Assembly (NCBI RefSeq): GCF_057098645.1
Contig: NZ_CM169472.1
Reading direction: 5' to 3' (one strand)
DNA: 64,000 nucleotides
Part shown: one piece after another, positions 1 through 9,694 of the stretch
How positions within the stretch are numbered: position 1 is the stretch's first letter
How the letters are laid out: each line of letters opens with the position of its first letter
Position numbers and translations under genes: made by a program
Notes under the pieces: generated by a model
Told to the model about the DNA's origin: nothing
The model's input: only the letters and a program-made list of their open reading frames with translations
Database searches by the model: none

Positions 1-78
1 CAGGCGGGCCAGTGACAATGCAGTTGCCGCACCGCCGATCCCGCCTCCCACAATTACTGCGCGTGTCACTTTCGTCAT
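1..78 (-). CDS. mhbM: 3-hydroxybenzoate 6-hydroxylase (FAD monooxygenase), N-terminal 26 codons only; gene runs off window start
   Basis: Reverse-strand ATG at 76-78 preceded by AGGAGAA RBS; translation MTKVTRAVIVGGGIGGAATALSLARL has FAD-binding GxGxxG; position after maleylpyruvate isomerase matches mhbRTDHIM order. Confidence 0.5.
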   Translation of the reverse strand, partial: MTKVTRAVIVGGGIGGAATALSLARL

Positions 79-92
79 TATAGTTCTCCTGG

Positions 93-740
93 TCAGGCTG
101 AAATTTTATCTTGTTGATTTTCTGGCGCTGCGGCAATGAACGCTGGCAGCTGTGTGCAGGCGTCGTACACCGCTTTGCAGCGTGGATACCCGCTCAAATC
201 GCAGTTCATGCGTAGCGCGTTTGCCCACTGCGGGACAAGGCAGCAATCTGCCAGCGTCGGCGTCTCGCCCACACAAAATTGCCCCGACTGGTTCTGGCGC
301 AACAGTTGTTCCACCGCGCTTAACCCTTGCTGGATCCAGTGCGCATACCAACGTTTTTTTTCTTCTTCACTGACGTTCAGTTCTTCGGTCAGGTAGCGCA
401 GCACGCGCAAGTTATTTAATGGATGAATATCACAAGCGATGGCATAGACAATTTCCAGCACCTTGTTGCGGGCCGGTTCTTCCTGCGGCACCAGCGGAAC
501 TTGCGGGTAGTGCCTCTCCAGCCAGTCAATAATCGCCAGCGATTGTCCGAGTGATTGGCCCTCGTCAGTCAGCAGCGTCGGCACCAGCCCGACCGGATTC
601 ATCCGCCGATAGGCCAGTTCATTTTGCTGACCAATACGGATATTCACCCCTTCGGTCTGGTAATTAATGCCTTTCAGCGCCAGCGCAATGCGTACCCGGT
701 ACGACGCTGAACTATTAAAAAAACTGTACAGCTTCATCAT
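93..740 (-). CDS. mhbI: maleylpyruvate isomerase (GST zeta-class)
   Basis: 215 aa ORF; N-terminal SSASYRVRIAL zeta-GST signature; context with gentisate dioxygenase and FAH hydrolase. Confidence 0.75.
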   Translation of the reverse strand: MMKLYSFFNSSASYRVRIALALKGINYQTEGVNIRIGQQNELAYRRMNPVGLVPTLLTDEGQSLGQSLAIIDWLERHYPQVPLVPQEEPARNKVLEIVYAIACDIHPLNNLRVLRYLTEELNVSEEEKKRWYAHWIQQGLSAVEQLLRQNQSGQFCVGETPTLADCCLVPQWANALRMNCDLSGYPRCKAVYDACTQLPAFIAAAPENQQDKISA

Positions 741-745
741 GCACC

Positions 746-1447
746 TCAGACAATCTTCACCGCGATAGGCGTTAAGCCCTCGACGTTGCCTGTGATCACA
801 TCACCTTTCACTACCGGGCCAACCCCTTCCGGCGTACCGGTGAAGATCAGATCGCCCGGTTGCAGCTCAAAGAAGCCTGACAGATAGCTGATGGTTTCAT
901 TCACCGACCAGATGAGATGGCGAATATCGCTGCGCTGATGATCTTCGCCGTTAACCTGTAACCAGATTGGCGCATTATCAATACCGCCGATATCGCGGGC
1001 TTTGTGCAGCGGCGCGATGGGCGCTGAGAGATCAAACGCTTTACCGATTTCCCACGGGCGGCCCATCTGGCGCATTTCCATTTGACGGTCACGCCGAGTC
1101 ATATCAAGACCCGTGGCATAACCCCAGACATATTCATGGGCGTGTTCCAGCGGGATATCGCTGCCTTTTTTACCAATCGCCACTACCAGTTCAATTTCGT
1201 AATGATAGTTATCGGTCTGCGCCGGATATGGCAGCGCCAGCGTTTCGCCAGCGGCGACCGGAATAACGGCATCTGCTGGTTTGCAGAAGAAGAAGGGTGG
1301 TTCACGATCCGGATCAAAGCCCATTTCGCGGGCGTGGGCGGCATAGTTACGCCCGACGCAGTAAACGCGACGCACGGGGAATTGTTTATCACTGCCAACA
1401 ACCGGTACGGTAACGGGCGCTTGTGGTTCGAATACATATTGAGTCAT
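746..1447 (-). CDS. mhbH: fumarylpyruvate hydrolase (fumarylacetoacetate hydrolase family)
   Basis: 233 aa ORF with FAH-family features ([14 protein letters not shown], metal-binding E/D cluster); 5-bp spacing to neighbours implies operon. Confidence 0.75.
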
Positions 1448-1462
1448 TTTCTCTCTCCCAAA

Positions 1463-2491
1463 TTAATAACGCGCTTCGCGGAAAAGCCCCAGGGCTTCTT
1501 GTACCGGTCTGTCCGAAAAACTGAATAAAACGGTATCTTGCGTAGTCTGGAATGACACGCCGTGCCAGGTCGGCACCACAAAGATATCTTTTGCACTAAA
1601 GGTGAAGATTTCATTGCCGATGGTGACTTGTCCGCTACCTTCCACTACATGGTAGATAGTGCTGTCAGTGGTGCGCGCCACGCGGGAGGAGAACCCTTTC
1701 GGTAGCAGTTGCAGGAAAGCGCCCATCGACGGCATCGGATAGCCGCCGGTGACCGGGTTGACGTAGCGCATTTTGTAGCCATCCCATTCGTCGGCATCGC
1801 CCATGCGGGTTAAATCGTGCAGCACTTCGCGGCTGCGGTCATAACGATAGTTAAAGATCGGCGAGGAGTTCCCCGTCTGATGGCGCAGCGGCAACATATT
1901 GGCAGCGTAACGCGGCAGGTAATCGCCCTCTTTACGCGTTACCGGTTGTTGATCTTCCGGGTAATCTTCGGCAAAACCGCAGCCCAGAGTGTTCACTAAT
2001 GGCAGATCCAACCCATCGAGCCAGATAACCGGTTCGTCGCCAGGGTTGCCGTGATCGTGCCAGCGCCACTGCGGGGTCAGGATAAAATCGCCCTCATTCA
2101 TTGGCGTGCGTTCGCCGTCAACGGCGGTAAATGCCCCTTTGCCTTCAACAATAAAACGCAGCGCCGACTGGTTATGACGATGACTCGGTGCCACTTCGCC
2201 CGGCATGATCAGTTGCAAACCGGCATATAAAGTCGCGGTGATGGAAGACTGCCCTCGCAGCGCCGGGTTTTCCAGTACCAGCACGCGGCGCACCGCCTCT
2301 TTCGCGCCAATCAGGCTGCCGCTCTCCAGCAGCAGCGGGCGGATCTCCTGATAATTCCAGTACGCTGGCGCACAGTTAGCGTTGGGCGTTTTCGGCACCA
2401 GATGGTGCAGTGACTCCCACAGCGGGGTCAGGTTTTGCCCGGAAATATGCTGATAAAATTGTTCACGGCTATTTTGATTGTTATCAGTCAT
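1463..2491 (-). CDS. mhbD: gentisate 1,2-dioxygenase (bicupin)
   Basis: 342 aa ORF; cupin His motifs ([15 protein letters not shown]); flanked by FAH hydrolase and MFS transporter. Confidence 0.8.
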
Positions 2492-2502
2492 TGGGATGCT
2501 CC

Positions 2503-3861
2503 TTATTCGTTCACAACACCTGCGTGAGGCAGTGAGTCAGGGATAGAGGTCGACTGGCGAACCACGGTGATCAACAGGGTTAACATCACCGCACTGATCG
2601 CCGCAGGCACAGCGATAATGAAAAACAGGGTGTCGAAAGAGAAATTCATCGCCATCATCACGCCGCCAGACAGCGAGCCAACAATCGCGCCGCAGCGGCC
2701 CACGGCGTTTGACCAGCTCACGCCCGTGGCGCGACTTTGTGTTGGATAAAGTGTTGCGGTCAGCGCATTCAGCCCCACCTGCGATCCGCTGATGCCAATG
2801 CCGGTGCCGAAAATCGCCAGCGCCATCAGCCATAATCCATCCTGGCTTAAGCCAATCATCACGATGCATATAGCGCCTGTGGCATAGCTCAGCGCCAGTA
2901 CGCGGAAAGGATTGAACTTATCCATCAGCACGCCCAGCGCCAGCGCGCCCAACGTACCGCCAATCTGGAACGCGGCGGTAACCCAGGAGGCATGTTGCAG
3001 GTCGATGCCGCGATGGTTGAGCAGCGTTGGCATCCAGCTTGAGAGCAGGTAAATAATCAGCAAGCTCATAAAGAACACCACCCACAGCATCAACGTGATG
3101 GGTAACTGACGCCCCATAAACAGTTGACGAATGCTGCCTTTTGTAACGGAGGCTGATTCAATGAGATAAAACTGGGTATCGACATAACGCTCGCGGGTGA
3201 TGGCGCTGACGGTTTTCGCAATCACCGCCTGGGGTAGCTGGCGGCGCACTTGCCAGCGTGGCGATTCCGGCAGAACCACCAGCAGTGCAACAAACAGCAT
3301 CAGCGGTAATACGCCACCCAACACCAGGATCCCGTGCCAGCCAATCACCGGCACCAGCTGCGCGCTGACAATCCCGCCAACCGCCGAACCCAGGGTAAAG
3401 CCGCAAAACATCAGCGTCACCAGCGCGCCGCGGCGGCGGGCAGGCAGATATTCCGAGGTCATGGTGATGGTGTTCGGCATCGCGCCGCCCAGACCCAAGC
3501 CGGTGAGAAAGCGCAGGAAGACCAGAGTTTGCAGATCCGGAGAGAAAGCTGAGGCGAGGCTTAACGCGCCAAACAAAAAGACGCACAGCTCAATCACCCG
3601 CTTGCGACCAAAGCGATCGGACAACGGGCCACAAAGCAGTGCGCCTGCGGTTAACCCCAGCAGACCCGCGCCAAAAAGCGGGGCGAGATCGCCTGCGGTG
3701 AGTTGCCAGTGAGTGCGAATATCAGGGGCGATAAATCCGATAGCCGCGGTGTCAAAACCATCGAGCATTACCACCAGAAAACAGCAGATGATAACGCGCC
3801 ACTGCATCTTGCCGACCGGAGCAGCATCGATAAGTGCTTGTAGATCACGTCGTTGAGTCAT
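2503..3861 (-). CDS. mhbT: MFS aromatic acid (3-hydroxybenzoate/gentisate) transporter
   Basis: 452 aa, multiple TM segments, MFS motif [12 protein letters not shown]; first gene of minus-strand catabolic operon. Confidence 0.75.
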
Positions 3862-3987
3862 AGTAAATGCCTCAGTGCAGGTAAGGTAGATGTTTCTTTT
3901 GTTTTGTATATGTTGCGATATTGTGATTAAAGAGATGAAATGTACAATGGCATTTCGGGCAGAGAGATAACCTGGAGGTTATGGTAA
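3862..3987. promoter_or_regulatory. divergent mhbR / mhbT control region with candidate LysR-type operator (ATTGTGA-N14-TGTACAAT, approx 3920-3950)
   Basis: 126-bp AT-rich spacer between divergently transcribed LysR gene and operon; imperfect inverted repeat of T-N11-A type seen by eye. Confidence 0.35.
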
Positions 3988-4896
3988 ATGGCGAACTGGG
4001 CGCAAAAATTAAAACTACATCACCTTGAAATGCTGGTGGCGTTGGGTGAACAGGGCAATCTGACCCATGTCGCACGAATGATGAATATCACCCAACCTGC
4101 GCTTTCGAAATGGTTGTCACAACTCGAAGATGAGATTGGAATCACACTTTTTGAGCGGCACAGCAAAGGATTACGTCCGACTGAAGGCGGCAAATTGTTA
4201 TTGCAACATGCCCAACGGTTAATCAATGACATGGAGCGATCGCAACATGAACTGGCCCGTTTTAAACAAGGTGGACTGGTCGGCAGTCTGAAAATTGGCT
4301 GTTCTCCCGTCGCCACTGACTGCGTATCCCAGGCGATTTTGCATTTGCTTACGAAGATGCCAACTCTACACCTGAATATCGAAGAGAAGGTGATGACCCC
4401 ATTGCTGCAAGATCTGTTGGCAGGTTCTGTCGACGTGGTCGTTGGGCGAATTGGCGGTCGCGCCTTGCAACTGCCACTGAATTATCAGGTGCTGTACACC
4501 GAGCCAGTATGCTTTGTCGCCAGCCCTGAGCACCCACTGGCGAAATACGCCACCCTCAGTTGGAATGATCTTGCCAACTGGCGCTGGATCGTCTGGCCGA
4601 CGGGTACCCCCATTCGCATTAGTATTGATAATGCGCTGGTAGACCACGGCGTAATGCTGCCAGAAAACACGATTGAGTCGGCGTCGATGAACGTCAGTAC
4701 CAACCTGTTACAAAGCAGCGATATGATCTCTATTTTGTCATTACGCCTGGCGCAACGTTATGCCAGCCAGGGACAACTGGTGATACTCAACCTGCCAAAG
4801 ATAGAACAGAAAGGCAGCGTCGGTGTGTTCTGGCGCAATAACGAAACGCCTTCTTATGCTTTAAGTCAGTTTCTGCACTTTTTACAGCAGAATTAG
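3988..4896 (+). CDS. mhbR: LysR-family transcriptional regulator of the gentisate operon
   Basis: 302 aa; N-terminal HTH (LTHVARMMNITQPALSKWLSQLE) typical of LysR; divergent from catabolic operon. Confidence 0.8.
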   Translation: MANWAQKLKLHHLEMLVALGEQGNLTHVARMMNITQPALSKWLSQLEDEIGITLFERHSKGLRPTEGGKLLLQHAQRLINDMERSQHELARFKQGGLVGSLKIGCSPVATDCVSQAILHLLTKMPTLHLNIEEKVMTPLLQDLLAGSVDVVVGRIGGRALQLPLNYQVLYTEPVCFVASPEHPLAKYATLSWNDLANWRWIVWPTGTPIRISIDNALVDHGVMLPENTIESASMNVSTNLLQSSDMISILSLRLAQRYASQGQLVILNLPKIEQKGSVGVFWRNNETPSYALSQFLHFLQQN

Positions 4897-5149
4897 TGTG
4901 CTGAACTGGGCATTCGCACGATGTTACTTCCCTGTAATTCAACGATGCGTAATTTTTCGGGGAATCGTGCACTGTGATAAGGCGTGATCTTTCATGGGGT
5001 GAAAATCCCACCAGGTGACTGTCGTTCCAGCCGGTAGCAGTCAAAGCAGTCGTGTGGGTAACAAAGCGGCTGATGTATTTGATGAAGAAGCTGTAGGTGT
5101 TTCAGTGAGTATACAGGTCATAATGTGAGTGAATCTGAGCAGGCCTCGA

Positions 5150-5930
5150 AAGAACCAATTGGAAGGACAACCCATTAGGAATTCCCAGAAAACAAGACAG
5201 GCATAGTGAGATGTGATCTAATTGATTGTGCTAGCAATTTCAAGGATATCACCACTATGCCTGCACGTTCATTATGCCAAAAATTCCTTAAAAACATACT
5301 GGCCACTTTGCATTTCTACCATCAAAAATCACTGATTGACGCAACAAATGCTGTAATAAATGGCGCTTCCCTCACGCTTAGCAGCATCGGGCGTCATTTA
5401 ACCAGACAGCATTAGTTAAAAACAAGATAAAGCGGGTGGATTGACCGTTGGGGAATTCTCAACTGAAAAATGATCTTCCCACCATTTTTCAGTTGGTTAC
5501 TCAAAAAAATACGCTGAGAATGTTCGTGTTGTTGTACGCCTTCGCCAGCAGTGGCAGGATGTTCAGGAGGAGTGTCGGCAGGCAGAGGTCGGATCAGGAG
5601 AGCGGCTGCGTAATGCCCTGCTGAATGTGGATTATACCACCAGTTTTGAACTGCCTTTTCGTCTGCTTTTAACCCGCACGTCACAGCTGATTGCTGTGCT
5701 TTGGGAAGAATGGGATATCAGCCAGAAAAATGTGGTGTTTAACGATAAACGCTTTGGTTGCGTGTATAGCCTGAAGGCCAGTCTTTCCGGCGTGCGGATA
5801 CATTCCGGTATCATCTGTCTCACCGTATTCGCCGGATGGTTGGGAATGAAATACATCATCGCCTTGGCAGCAGATTGCCCGGAAAGTGAAAGCGCTCCGT
5901 GAATGACTTAAGTATGCGCTAGAGGAGGGA
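5150..5930 (+). mobile_element. degenerate IS4-family (IS10-like) transposase remnant, frameshifted and 3'-truncated
   Basis: Short ORFs 5206-5415 and 5627-5902 carry IS10-like N-terminal motifs (ASLTLSSIGRHL cf. IS10 TLTLTELGRNL; IAVLWEEWDISQK cf. IVLVDWSDIREQK); boundaries approximate. Confidence 0.4.
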
Positions 5931-6082
5931 TTACTGGTGACCGCACTGGACGGTCTGTTCTGGTCTGGTAGTCAGCGTATTGCGGAAGATATTCTGTGTC
6001 GTTACGGGGAAGTCATCTTCACAGGGATCTTCAGTCAGTTAGTATTACCGACATTCATTCACCAACTTACCGGAGATAATCG

Positions 6083-6412
6083 ATGTCAAAACCCCGATGG
6101 ACCATTGAACAGAAAAGGCAGCACGTTGCTGCCTGGCGCGCCAGTGGTCTTACACGTCAGCAATACTGTGAACTCAACGATATTCCCTTCACATCACTTC
6201 GCGAATGGCCGCAGGATGTCGCAAAAGCTGAACGCCGGGCAAATGAACCGACCGTTCTTCCCGTTCATATTGCGCCACCACTGCATGCTGATGTACCACA
6301 GCCCGTCACGAATGAGCCAGTCACGCTCTTCCTTCCCGGCGGAGTACGGATGTGCTGTCAGCCGTCACAACTTACCGATGTCTTCAGGGCGCTCAAATAT
6401 GCTCAGTCCTGA
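6083..6412 (+). CDS. IS66-family accessory protein TnpA (orf1)
   Basis: 109 aa, HTH-like (WTIEQKRQHVAAWRASGLTRQQYCELNDI); stop overlaps tnpB start. Confidence 0.65.
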   Translation: MSKPRWTIEQKRQHVAAWRASGLTRQQYCELNDIPFTSLREWPQDVAKAERRANEPTVLPVHIAPPLHADVPQPVTNEPVTLFLPGGVRMCCQPSQLTDVFRALKYAQS

Positions 6413-6791
6413 TAATGTCTTCATCGCGATTAAACCTGTTGACATGCGCCGGGGCATCGACACACTGACGCAGTATATACAGGATGAACTCCGGTCGACA
6501 TGGCATGAGGGAGCCGCCTTCGTCTTTGTTAACAAAGACCGTTCGCGTATCAAAGTTCTCCGGTGGGATAAACACGGGGTGTGGTTGTGTACCCGCCGTC
6601 TTCACAAAGGCAGCTTCCGCTGGCCACGTGCAAATGATGCTGCCTGGCACCTCACTCCCGACGAGTTTAACTGGCTGATTGCCGGTGTTGACTGGCAGCA
6701 GGTTAAGGGACATGGCCTGACGAAATGGGTCTGGCAAAATGAACCTGAACTGCGCCCTGAAAACACGCAAAACACACTGCTAACTCACTGA
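6399..6791 (+). CDS. IS66-family TnpB (orf2)
   Basis: In-frame ATG at 6399 within track ORF 5937-6791; sequence MLSPDNVFIAIKPVDMRRGIDTL... resembles IS66 orf2. Confidence 0.6.
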   Translation: MLSPDNVFIAIKPVDMRRGIDTLTQYIQDELRSTWHEGAAFVFVNKDRSRIKVLRWDKHGVWLCTRRLHKGSFRWPRANDAAWHLTPDEFNWLIAGVDWQQVKGHGLTKWVWQNEPELRPENTQNTLLTH

Positions 6792-6797
6792 AAAATA

Positions 6798-7845
6798 ATG
6801 AATATTCGTATCCGGAGTGGTATGCTCCCCTGTATGGATATCTCCGCTCTCAACACCACGAATGACATCGAAAAACTGCGTGCTATGGCACTTGCCATGG
6901 TACAAAAAGTCATGTCGGAGAATGCCGAAAAAGAGCGGGAATTACTGGAGAAAAGCCGGCGCATCCAGCTTCTGGAAGAAATGCTGAAACTGGTTCGTCA
7001 ACAGCGCTTCGGTAAAAAATGTGAAACGCTGGCTGGTATGCAACGCTCCCTGTTCGAAGAGGATGTTGATGTCGATATCGCCGAGCTCACCGCACATCTG
7101 GATAAACTGCTCCCGCAATCCCCTGAAGAAGACGAAAAAGCGTCCCGTTCACGCCCGATACGCAAACCCTTACCGGCTCATCTTCCACGGGTGGAAAAAA
7201 TTATCCAGCCGGACACTGACCATTGCCCTGAATGTGACGAGCCGCTGCACTATATCCGTGATGCGGTGAGTGAAAAGCTGGAGTATATTCCCGCTCACTT
7301 TGTGGTGAACTGTTATGTCCGTCCGCAATACAGTTGTCCCTGTTGCCAGAAGGTGTTCAGCGGTGAAATGCCGGCACATATCCTCCCGAAAAGTGCCGTT
7401 GAGCCATCAGTCATCGCACAGGTGATCATCAATAAATACGGTGAGCACCTGCCTCTGTATCGCCAGCAACAGGTCTTTGCCCGTTCAGATGTCGGACTGC
7501 CCGTCAGTTCGATGGCTGACATGGTTGGCGCGGCAGGGGCCGCATTATCCCCCCTCGCGGCGTTACTCCATCGCGAATTGATAAGCCGTCCGGTGGTGCA
7601 TGCAGATGAGACTACCCTGAAGATCCTGAACACGAAGAAAGGCGGTAAATCCTGCTCCGGTTATCTGTGGGCATACGTCAGTGGAGAAAGGACGGGACCG
7701 TCAGTTGTGTGCTTCGACTGCCGGACCGGACGTAGCCATGAGTATCCTGAAAACTGGCTTCAGGGCTGGGGCGGGACGCTGGTTGTCGACGGACATAAAG
7801 CTTACCGGACTCTGGCAAACAAAGTGCCGGAGCTGGCGAATATCA
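6798..7845 (+). pseudogene. IS66-family transposase TnpC, C-terminally truncated (about 350 of about 520 aa)
   Basis: Coiled-coil N-term, zinc finger CPECDE...CPCCQ, DDE motifs; homology ends after LVVDGHKAYRTLANKVPEL where a Gly/Ala-rich PT-VENN-like sequence begins. Confidence 0.6.
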
Positions 7846-8441
7846 TCGGTCATCACGCGGGTATTGATGACAATACAGCGGCAAAAGCCATTGCCCATGC
7901 CATTCTCGGTGGTGTGACAGCAGCCCTTCAGGGCAACAGTGCGGCAGCAGGCGCAATTGGTGCGGGTACTGGTGAAGTGATCTCGTCAGCCATTGCGAAA
8001 AGCCTCTACCCGGACGTAGATCCGTCGAAACTGACAGAAGATCAGAAGCAAACCGTAAGCACGCTGGCAACGCTGTCAGCGGGTATGGCTGGCGGCATTG
8101 CCAGTGGCGATGTGGCTGGCACAGCTGCAGGGGCTGGTGTTGGGAAGAACATTGCTGAGAATAACTTGGTTGGTGGCACAGAGTCCGAGCAGAGCAAAGC
8201 TGCTCAGACGCATGGCGCAGATGTACTTTCCTGTAACGATGCTCCAGGCGGTGAAGCCTGTAAGCGAGGAGAAGCAGTCAATAAAGCGTATGCCGGAGCG
8301 TTGGCCACTGGTAGTGTAGCTCTCTTACCTGGCGGTGCTCAGGCCATGTGGGCTCTTGGCACAGGTGCAAATGCAGGAATTGGTTACATGGTAGATAGTT
8401 CAGTTGATCCTGAAAATGCAATCATTGCAGGATGGGTCTGA
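7846..8441 (+). pseudogene. orphan CdiA-CT-like toxin fragment: pretoxin PT-VENN-like region (AENN) plus about 90 aa of CT N-terminal region, cut by IS629
   Basis: KLTEDQKQTVSTLATLSAGMAGGIASGDVAGTAAGAGVGKNIAENN resembles CdiA pretoxin region ending in VENN-type motif; two Cys after motif; reading frame ends at TGA that is first triplet of IS629 IR. Confidence 0.5.
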
Positions 8442-8480
8442 ACCGCCCCGGGTTTCCTGGAGAGTGTTTTATCTGTGAAC

Positions 8481-9371
8481 TCAGGCTGCCAGATCATCGT
8501 TTCCGATGGAAGCATAATAAGCTTTTTCTGCTTCTGCCGGAGGAGTATGGCCCAGCCTTTCCAGCAATCGTCGATTGTTATACCAGTCCACCCACGTGAG
8601 TGTGGCCAGTTCCACTTCTGCACGGTTTTTCCAGCTCTTACGGTGTATTACCTCCGCTTTGTAAAGACCATTGATGCTCTCCGCCATCGCGTTGTCATAC
8701 GAGTCGCCTGTACTTCCTGTTGATGCCAGTAATCCGGCTTCCTTAAGCCGCTGTGTGTAGGCCAGCGATACATACTGAGAACCTTTATCACTGTGATGGA
8801 CCGTGCCGGACGGTCGACGGGCCCATAACGCCTGCTCCAGTGCATCCAGCACGAATGTCGTCTCCATGGACGATGAGACCCGCCACCCCACAATGTATCC
8901 GGCAAACACATCAATGATGAACGCCACATAGACGAAGCCCTGCCATGTGCTGACGTAAGTAAAATCAGCCACCCACAGCTGGTCAGGTCGTTCTGCCACG
9001 AACTGACGGTTTACGCGGTCGCCTGCGGCAACGGCTTTCCGGCTGATGGTCGTACGGACCTTTTTACCCCGGAGAACACCGGCAAGTCCCATAACCGCCA
9101 TGAGACGTGCCACAGTGCATCTGGCCACTCTGATACCTTCCCGTAACAACTGACGCCAGACTTTACGCACACCGTATACCTTGTGATTTTCATCGTATAC
9201 GCGCTGTATCTCTTTCTTCAGCCAGTCATCGCGCTGCGCACGGGCACTGCGTTTATCCGGATGATGTCGCTGTTGCTGACAGTGGTAATACGTTGACGGG
9301 GCAATATGCAGTTCGCTGCATAGCGGTCCGACCCCGTACTGCTCACGCAGCTTATCCAGCAGTGGCATCAT
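8481..9371 (-). CDS. IS629 transposase OrfB (DDE integrase domain)
   Basis: 296 aa with DDE motifs ([25 protein letters not shown]); start overlaps orfA stop; expressed as OrfAB by -1 frameshift. Confidence 0.85.
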
Positions 9372-9694
9372 TTTTTCCAGAGGCGGTCGAACTCCGCCTT
9401 CGCAAAATAAGCGGAAGCCTGGCGAAGGATATCGTTACTGCGGCGCAGTTCACGATTTTCACGCTCCAGCTCTTTCAGACGCTGACGTTCAGCGGTGGTG
9501 AGCCCTCCATCACCGCCCCCGGTATCCCGCTCATGCTGGCGAACCCAGACACGCAGAGTCTCCGGCGTACAGCCAATCTTTGGAGCAATGGAACAAATTG
9601 TCGCCCATTGTGAGTCATATTCGCCCTGACTTTCCAGAACCATACGGACTGCCCGTTGACGGACTTCAGGGGAAAAACGAGTATTTTTAGTCAT
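9368..9694 (-). CDS. IS629 OrfA (HTH / leucine zipper)
   Basis: 108 aa [19 protein letters not shown]...; A6 slippery run (minus-strand GGAAAAAATGATG, approx 9366-9380) at orfA/orfB overlap. Confidence 0.85.

Follow-up and report, generated by a model that had tools for sequence, protein, structure and literature searches.

A probable 3-hydroxybenzoate/gentisate catabolic operon of the mhbRTDHIM type on tRNA-Phe islands of Escherichia coli, and its likely origin as a translocated Escherichia allele

The left end of a 64,000-nucleotide stretch of DNA (contig NZ_CM169472.1 of RefSeq assembly GCF_057098645.1; the whole stretch is called the window here) carries a gene cluster that we interpret as a functional operon of the mhbRTDHIM type, for growth on 3-hydroxybenzoate and gentisate. 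This copy is best explained as a translocated Escherichia allele, carried on islands associated with tRNA-Phe genes and lying amid debris of insertion sequences (IS) and a group II intron. From the comparisons described below, we put the probability of this reading at roughly 0.9. The pathway, the cluster as such and its enzymes, among them the O157:H7 dioxygenase with its crystal structure, are already established, and RefSeq already names the genes. What the analysis offers is clarification on two points. In evolutionary terms, an old Enterobacteriaceae locus at dusC-yohJ has been lost by most E. coli, and one Escherichia allele has been re-mobilised onto pheV and pheU islands and plasmids. 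In regulatory terms, MhbR is paired with a predicted operator of the PcaQ type, which hardly varies across the Enterobacterales.

An open reading frame (ORF) map was made for window positions 1-9000, and the products were compared with NCBIfam/TIGRFAM and Pfam profiles and with structures in the PDB. Positions 1-4896 contain five closely packed minus-strand genes, mhbT-mhbD-mhbH-mhbI-mhbM′, opposite a divergent plus-strand LysR gene, mhbR. The ring-cleaving enzyme is encoded by mhbD (gtdA; 2491-1463), whose 342-aa product is a gentisate 1,2-dioxygenase (GDO), an Fe2+-dependent bicupin. It scores 603 bits against TIGR02272, where the cut-off is 442, and matches the E. coli O157:H7 GDO (PDB 2D40) with E=2.9e-236; residues His104, His106 and His145, spaced 2/39, correspond to the three-histidine iron site described for GDOs. 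The mhbI gene (maiA; 737-93) encodes a zeta-class glutathione S-transferase (GST) of 214 aa, or of 215 aa if translation starts at an in-frame ATG at 740. MhbI exceeds the cut-off of the maleylacetoacetate/maleylpyruvate isomerase family TIGR01262 (309 bits vs 171), resembles the NagL maleylpyruvate isomerase (2JL4/2V6K, E=1.9e-48) and contains the zeta-GST motif SSxSxRVRIAL as SSASYRVRIAL, and is thus predicted to be a glutathione-dependent maleylpyruvate isomerase. Between these two genes lies mhbH (1447-746, 233 aa), for a putative fumarylpyruvate hydrolase of the fumarylacetoacetate hydrolase (FAH) family, with matches to Pfam FAA_hydrolase (1.2e-54), to PDB 6J5Y (E=1e-112) and to 4MAQ, a "putative fumarylpyruvate hydrolase" (E=4e-72). 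The first gene of the row, mhbT (3861-2503, 452 aa), encodes a predicted aromatic acid:H+ symporter of the AAHS family of the major facilitator superfamily (MFS), for uptake of 3-hydroxybenzoate. Its product matches Pfam MFS_1 (1.4e-55), has the DGXD motif (DGFD, residues 34-37) and the MFS loop motif GXXXD(R/K)XGR(R/K) at residue 78, and is 84-92% identical to orthologues from syntenic clusters in tblastn comparisons; the RefSeq name MhbT is the product of NCBI's own naming rule.

The five minus-strand genes are separated by gaps of 5-15 bp, each is preceded by a Shine-Dalgarno-like sequence, and terminator-like sites between them are not in excess of those in shuffled sequence. The arrangement therefore fits a single mhbT-D-H-I-M transcription unit. 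A 5.2-kb stretch is 100% identical to E. coli O145 strain RM9872 and to other genomes, O103 included, in which RefSeq labels the products as MhbT, GtdA, an FAH-family protein, MaiA, a 3-hydroxybenzoate 6-monooxygenase and a LysR regulator.

The last gene, mhbM, is clipped by the window edge and is represented by its first 26 codons (78-1, minus strand), whose translation, MTKVTRAVIVGGGIGGAATALSLARL, contains the GxGxxG fingerprint of flavin adenine dinucleotide (FAD) binding. In all five island-type genomes examined it is an intact coding sequence of 397 aa, and none of the five has an inactivating mutation in the part that lies outside the window. The full-length protein from an identical genome has as its best solved relative the 3-hydroxybenzoate 6-hydroxylase (3HB6H) of Rhodococcus jostii (4BJY, E=2.5e-78), the characterised enzyme of strain RHA1 (PMC5472690). 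It is also 88-91% identical to Klebsiella MhbM, which is cited as a 3-hydroxybenzoate 6-hydroxylase (PMC3572157). We accordingly identify MhbM as a putative 3-hydroxybenzoate 6-hydroxylase, a group A flavoprotein monooxygenase.

A preliminary description of this DNA, made from its letters alone, had named these genes, their order and their likeness to the Klebsiella mhb genes. The profile searches and tblastn comparisons bear out all three, and the name and function of the cluster appear in PMC5343071. That description had also called the operon complete-looking, which holds in that the six genes are present and in order; the qualification is that mhbM is cut, and only by the left edge of the window.

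The regulatory gene mhbR (3988-4896, plus strand) encodes a LysR-type protein of 302 aa with HTH_1 (4e-18) and LysR_substrate (2e-35) domains. Its best NCBIfam match is PcaQ (TIGR02424); because the score of 186 bits falls below the equivalog cut-off of 304, MhbR is not PcaQ. Between mhbR and mhbT lies a divergent control region of 126 bp (3862-3987), and the corresponding regions of 49 loci were aligned. In most of them the region is 125-127 bp long and has conserved blocks, and in every locus that holds both genes mhbR is divergent from mhbT. At 3967-3982 the window has a PcaQ-type LysR box, ATAACCTGGAGGTTAT, of the form ATAACC-N4-GGTTAT. This perfect palindrome is present in 48 of the 49 intergenic regions (exact in 44) and has no second match within the 64-kb window, where 0.09 matches would be expected by chance. 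The same sequence is reported as the PcaQ motif in PMC3557286 and PMC5002191, in keeping with the place of PcaQ as the top family hit for MhbR. The box shares sequence with the mhbR Shine-Dalgarno element (GGAGG); 5 nt separate it from the mhbR start codon, and 113 bp lie between its centre and the mhbT ATG. Across loci the distance to the mhbR start codon is always 2-6 nt, and the distance from the box centre to the mhbT start is about 113 bp in most.

A consensus scan of the region gave a single sigma-70-like candidate, in the direction of mhbR: TTGTGA-16-TACAAT at 3921-3948 (plus strand), with 9 of 12 consensus positions. Its TACAAT hexamer sits inside the conserved block CCATTGTACA of the 49-locus alignment, and the predicted box lies downstream of this candidate promoter. 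Taken together, these features mark MhbR as a predicted LysR activator with a putative operator in the divergent region. By orthology, MhbR, a PcaQ-like LysR regulator, would bind the box in the 126-bp region and, with an aromatic inducer bound, would activate mhbTDHIM. It probably also represses its own gene, as expected from the usual logic of LysR regulators, because the box covers the mhbR leader and Shine-Dalgarno sequence.

The proposed pathway is modelled on orthologues, above all on the mhbRTDHIM genes of Klebsiella M5a1 (PMC5343071, PMC3572157). MhbT would import 3-hydroxybenzoate by proton symport, and MhbM, an FAD/NAD(P)H monooxygenase, would hydroxylate it at C6 to gentisate. MhbD, through its three-histidine Fe2+ bicupin site, would open the gentisate ring to maleylpyruvate, which MhbI with glutathione would convert to fumarylpyruvate. 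Finally, MhbH would cleave fumarylpyruvate to fumarate and pyruvate. The inducers and the specificity assumed for MhbT come from citing papers and general background knowledge.

The cluster is found in 613 of 5426 complete E. coli genomes (about 11%), and one genome, H25, retains only mhbR. As the preliminary description had stated, it is absent from K-12: in MG1655 dusC and yohJ are adjacent and the site is empty. In O157:H7, O55:H7, APEC O2-211 and several other strains, a native cluster lies between dusC and yohJ, and alignment of the O157 and K-12 loci places a 6185-bp segment where K-12 has 123 bp of its own sequence. At the left junction of this native insertion the O157:H7 locus has a GC-rich hairpin repeat resembling repetitive extragenic palindromic (REP) sequences, CCCTCACCCTAACCCTCTCCCGAAGGGGCGAGGGG (positions 6766-6830 of that locus), which is partly common to the island copy.

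For a wider view, one genome per species was scanned for relatives of the dioxygenase, and tblastn was then run with the six proteins. The divergent order, mhbR opposite mhbTDHIM, is kept in about 48 Enterobacterales species, with amino-acid identities of 62-98%. More than 30 species of Enterobacteriaceae have the module between yohJK on one side and dusC on the other; they belong to several genera, including Escherichia, Citrobacter, Klebsiella, Kluyvera, Raoultella, Pluralibacter, Pseudocitrobacter and Shimwellia. Salmonella and K. pneumoniae sensu stricto are not among the 80 loci kept from this one-genome-per-species scan, and we make no claim about either. Because the module occupies the same position across genera, we take dusC-yohJ to be its ancestral, vertically inherited locus in the Enterobacteriaceae, which most E. 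coli, K-12 included, have lost.

The window copy lies elsewhere. Relative to the O157:H7 locus it forms one 6119-bp segment of 96.9% identity (blastn), which runs from 53 bp past the mhbM stop codon to window position 4948, 52 bp past the mhbR stop; the right-hand tail of this conserved 6.1-kb module is thus 4897-4948, and homology with the native dusC-yohJ copy stops at 4948. The end points of the segment approximate those of the O157 insertion, from which they differ by at most 3 bp at the right end and 64 bp at the left end. No tRNA gene is present in the window, and the setting of the module is read from related genomes, in which a tyrosine integrase beside a tRNA-Phe gene and the module within the island are seen. 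In Z217-2 the module is on an island with an integrase beside tRNA-Phe and yqgA (pheV), and in DLI.6n it is on an island bounded by a tRNA-Phe gene adjoining dicD/cadC (pheU). The island-type right junction occurs in 91 of the 5426 genomes. Plasmids provide a third setting, large ones in E. coli and one in Klebsiella aerogenes, with unrelated IS elements on the two sides of the module. A composite or IS-bounded catabolic transposon was considered and set aside: there are no significant flanking repeats, the debris of IS elements is confined to the right of the island copy, and on the plasmids the IS elements of the two sides do not match.

Where, then, did the island copy come from? An import by way of the island from another genus, such as Klebsiella, Salmonella or Citrobacter, might be supposed from its position on an integrative island beside IS remnants, from the IS-flanked E. 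coli plasmids and the K. aerogenes plasmid that carry the cluster, and from its presence in only about a tenth of complete E. coli genomes. The allele relationships make a recent import of this kind very unlikely. Island copies are 98.5-100% identical in DNA among themselves, 96.9-97.6% identical to the O157:H7 native allele, 95-96% identical to other native E. coli alleles and 90-91% identical to E. coli E69 and E. albertii, as against 79-82% to Citrobacter, Trabulsiella and Klebsiella. In a neighbour-joining (NJ) tree the island alleles group together in a single clade, which has the O157 native allele as its sister and is nested inside the Escherichia native alleles. On the strength of the identity matrix and the NJ tree, we conclude that the window copy is an Escherichia allele moved to a mobile element and not a Klebsiella import. 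Base composition also gives the import no support. The module has 55% GC, with 0.56-0.67 at third codon positions (GC3), close to neighbouring core genes (48-55% GC, GC3 0.50-0.62), so that the GC and codon-usage comparison proposed in the preliminary description proved not to discriminate. Its view that the operon was probably acquired horizontally is right for this copy, because the copy belongs to tRNA-Phe-associated islands with an integrase, but does not extend to the module itself, which is not foreign to the lineage, given its dusC-yohJ position in more than 30 species.

Two further alternatives concern function. The surroundings might suggest a decaying pseudo-operon in an IS graveyard: a fragment of a group II intron and degraded IS elements (IS4, IS66 and IS3) lie directly alongside, an island-type metagenome contig has lost 1388 bp of the cluster, and H25 is reduced to mhbR. 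The IS graveyard itself, noted in the preliminary description, is real and comprises an ISEc60 remnant, IS66 tnpA/tnpB/tnpC and an IS3 element on the right. To decay of the operon we nevertheless give almost no credence, in view of six full-length ORFs that match the lengths of their orthologues, conserved catalytic residues, an intact operator box and ratios of nonsynonymous to synonymous substitution (dN/dS) of 0.03-0.10 for all six genes between island and native copies. Such low values indicate that the translocated copy has been kept under purifying selection; the synonymous divergence from the O157 native copy, 0.02-0.16, points to separate alleles and not to a recent duplication. The other alternative is that salicylate is the true entry substrate and that the monooxygenase is a salicylate 5-hydroxylase, as older O157 annotations and models assumed. 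Genome-scale models of enterohaemorrhagic E. coli (EHEC) did pair a "salicylate hydroxylase" with an added gentisate 1,2-dioxygenase reaction (PMC3229490), and the PDB depositors titled 4BJY a "probable salicylate monooxygenase". We consider this highly improbable as well: 4BJY is the characterised 3HB6H, and MhbM keeps the equivalents of its substrate-binding residues His213, Tyr217 and Gln301; true salicylate hydroxylases match MhbM far less well (6BZ5, 8.5e-33; 5EVY, 6e-31), and the Klebsiella orthologue already mentioned is cited as a 3-hydroxybenzoate 6-hydroxylase.

Several points weigh against our interpretation of the region as a functional, translocated mhb operon. MhbH falls under every NCBIfam equivalog cut-off (best NF007967, 156 vs 201), and the best NCBIfam matches of MhbT are likewise under theirs (TIGR00895, 380 vs 418.6; PcaK, 426 vs 770), so the exact substrates of these two proteins rest on gene context and RefSeq naming. 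The window holds only 26 codons of mhbM, and the intactness of the gene is read from the five island-type genomes and not from the source of the window. The consensus scan, which gave only the mhbR candidate, yielded no promoter or start site for mhbT; an arrangement derived by hand (TTGTAC as -35, CAATAT as -10, box near -65) is unverified and is not advanced as a finding. At the module ends, junction alignments and a repeat search revealed no transposase, direct repeats, target duplication, terminal inverted repeats or matching IS. Finally, each biochemical step is assigned to the island allele from orthologues, and it is from these that we infer substrate specificity, induction and growth.

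Literature searches turned up nothing direct on the use of 3-hydroxybenzoate or gentisate by E. coli as sole carbon source for growth, or on a link of the cluster to EHEC islands. Two independent hints suggest that the native O157 allele is used, namely the EHEC models mentioned above and the detection of GtdA protein in O157 under rumen conditions (PMC9135228).

The island segment that carries the module in O103:H2 and O145 bears efa1/lifA, nleB, nleE and espL2 as well. One may ask whether the island copy is a selected colonisation trait that travels with islands of type III effectors. The idea is prompted by purifying selection on the six genes, by the 91 island-type junctions among 5426 genomes and by GtdA in rumen-grown O157 (PMC9135228), and we regard it as unlikely. 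If it were true, EHEC, Shiga toxin-producing E. coli and other gut- or plant-associated E. coli would consume gentisate (2,5-dihydroxybenzoate) and 3-hydroxybenzoate, and an ancestral chromosomal locus would have been "rescued" onto a mobile island after its loss by most E. coli. Both compounds arise from the breakdown of plant polyphenols in the rumen or colon, and gentisate has been proposed as a host siderophore moiety. In more general terms, the operon is an example of how "accessory and island-borne" need not imply "foreign". A practical prediction is that the 6.1-kb cassette should transfer 3-hydroxybenzoate utilisation to K-12.

Some variation among island copies may be recorded here. 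In Z217-2, MaiA (WP_000781198.1) and MhbR (WP_000024633.1) are identical to the O157:H7 native alleles, and the FAH-family protein and GtdA are island alleles, which hints at recombination or gene conversion between native and island copies. The metagenome contig JAIJJM010000061.1, labelled Collinsella sp., consists of mhb DNA of the E. coli island type, with 98.8-99.6% identity to the island locus, and its bin label is probably wrong. A deletion of 1388 bp in it takes out mhbH altogether, along with the 3′ end of mhbD and the 5′ end of mhbI; either function has been lost naturally in this variant or the gap arose in assembly.

To the right of the module, 45 bp from its end, positions 4993-5128 (plus strand) match the Rfam family RF02003 (group II catalytic intron D1-D4-4) over its full length, with 69.9 bits against a gathering threshold of 49 (E~1e-14). 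The feature has no RefSeq annotation in the identical genomes. Neither a D5-D6 match nor a reverse-transcriptase ORF follows it, so that it resembles the truncated remnant of a group II intron. Further on lies a fusion ORF of 547 aa (6798-8441, plus strand). About two thirds of an IS66 TnpC transposase, from its N-terminal side (LZ, zf-IS66 and one half of the DDE domain), are joined in it to part of a contact-dependent inhibition toxin of the CdiA type, namely a pre-toxin segment (DUF637/PT-VENN). In related genomes a toxin fragment and then the immunity gene cdiI-o11 lie downstream of this ORF, an arrangement that suggests insertion of IS66 into an orphan cdiA-CT/cdiI module.

An IS3-family element occupies 8481-9694 (minus strand) and includes an ALIL frameshift pseudoknot (RF01497) at 9297-9413. 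Left of it, the window corresponds to the mhb island of O145 and O103; right of it are a Flp/Tad-type pilus cluster and glcABGFEDC, which in the same genomes are megabases apart from the island. The element thus appears to be a pivot of rearrangement. Beyond about 8.4 kb the exact arrangement of the window recurs in none of the complete genomes of the collection, the best records covering 90% or being split at the IS3 element, and this fits an IS3-mediated rearrangement. The segment at about 9746-13332, of low GC content (32% at 10001-11000), encodes a secretin, CpaB, an A24 prepilin peptidase, a Flp pilin and a winged-helix regulator. This Tad/Flp-like pilus cluster adjoins glcA, and the IS3 element may have truncated its secretin. 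In Z1323HEC0422 the annotation gives a frameshift in glcF, for a subunit of glycolate oxidase (13916-15137 of that locus, approximately window 19353-20574), and the sequence there is 100% identical to the window. The annotation of the same genome gives yghO an internal stop.

One of the closest known systems is the mhbRTDHIM cluster of Klebsiella "pneumoniae" M5a1, for 3-hydroxybenzoate catabolism by way of gentisate, for which genomes of Klebsiella species served as stand-ins. The same six genes are present in the same order and orientation, with the divergent LysR gene. The orthologues of K. oxytoca, K. michiganensis and K. grimontii share 83-91% amino-acid identity with those described here, and the length of the intergenic region, 126 bp, and the ATAACC-N4-GGTTAT box are the same. 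The Klebsiella clusters differ in having about 79% DNA identity and in lying, in the species examined, at dusC-yohJ instead of on a tRNA-Phe island. The native O157:H7 cluster, from which the 2D40 structure derives, is the same 6.1-kb module, with 96.9% DNA identity and proteins 97-99.7% identical; it occupies a core-genome site, in contrast to the integrative island of the present copy. Also related are the nag/gen-type gentisate pathways, such as NagI/NagL/NagK of Ralstonia sp. U2 and mhbRTDHI of Burkholderia xenovorans, which share the core of GDO, glutathione-dependent isomerase and FAH-family hydrolase. Proteins of B. xenovorans LB400 are 53-64% identical to the Klebsiella Mhb proteins (PMC3572157). 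These clusters depart from the present one in having other regulators (of MarR type in LB400), in having mhbM elsewhere or other upper pathways, and in their gene orders; Variovorax-type loci comprise only D-H-M. Finally, the PcaQ regulon of Sinorhizobium and Agrobacterium, which governs protocatechuate genes, has an operator consensus identical to the predicted MhbR box, and among protein families MhbR matches PcaQ best; the target genes and inducer of PcaQ are different.

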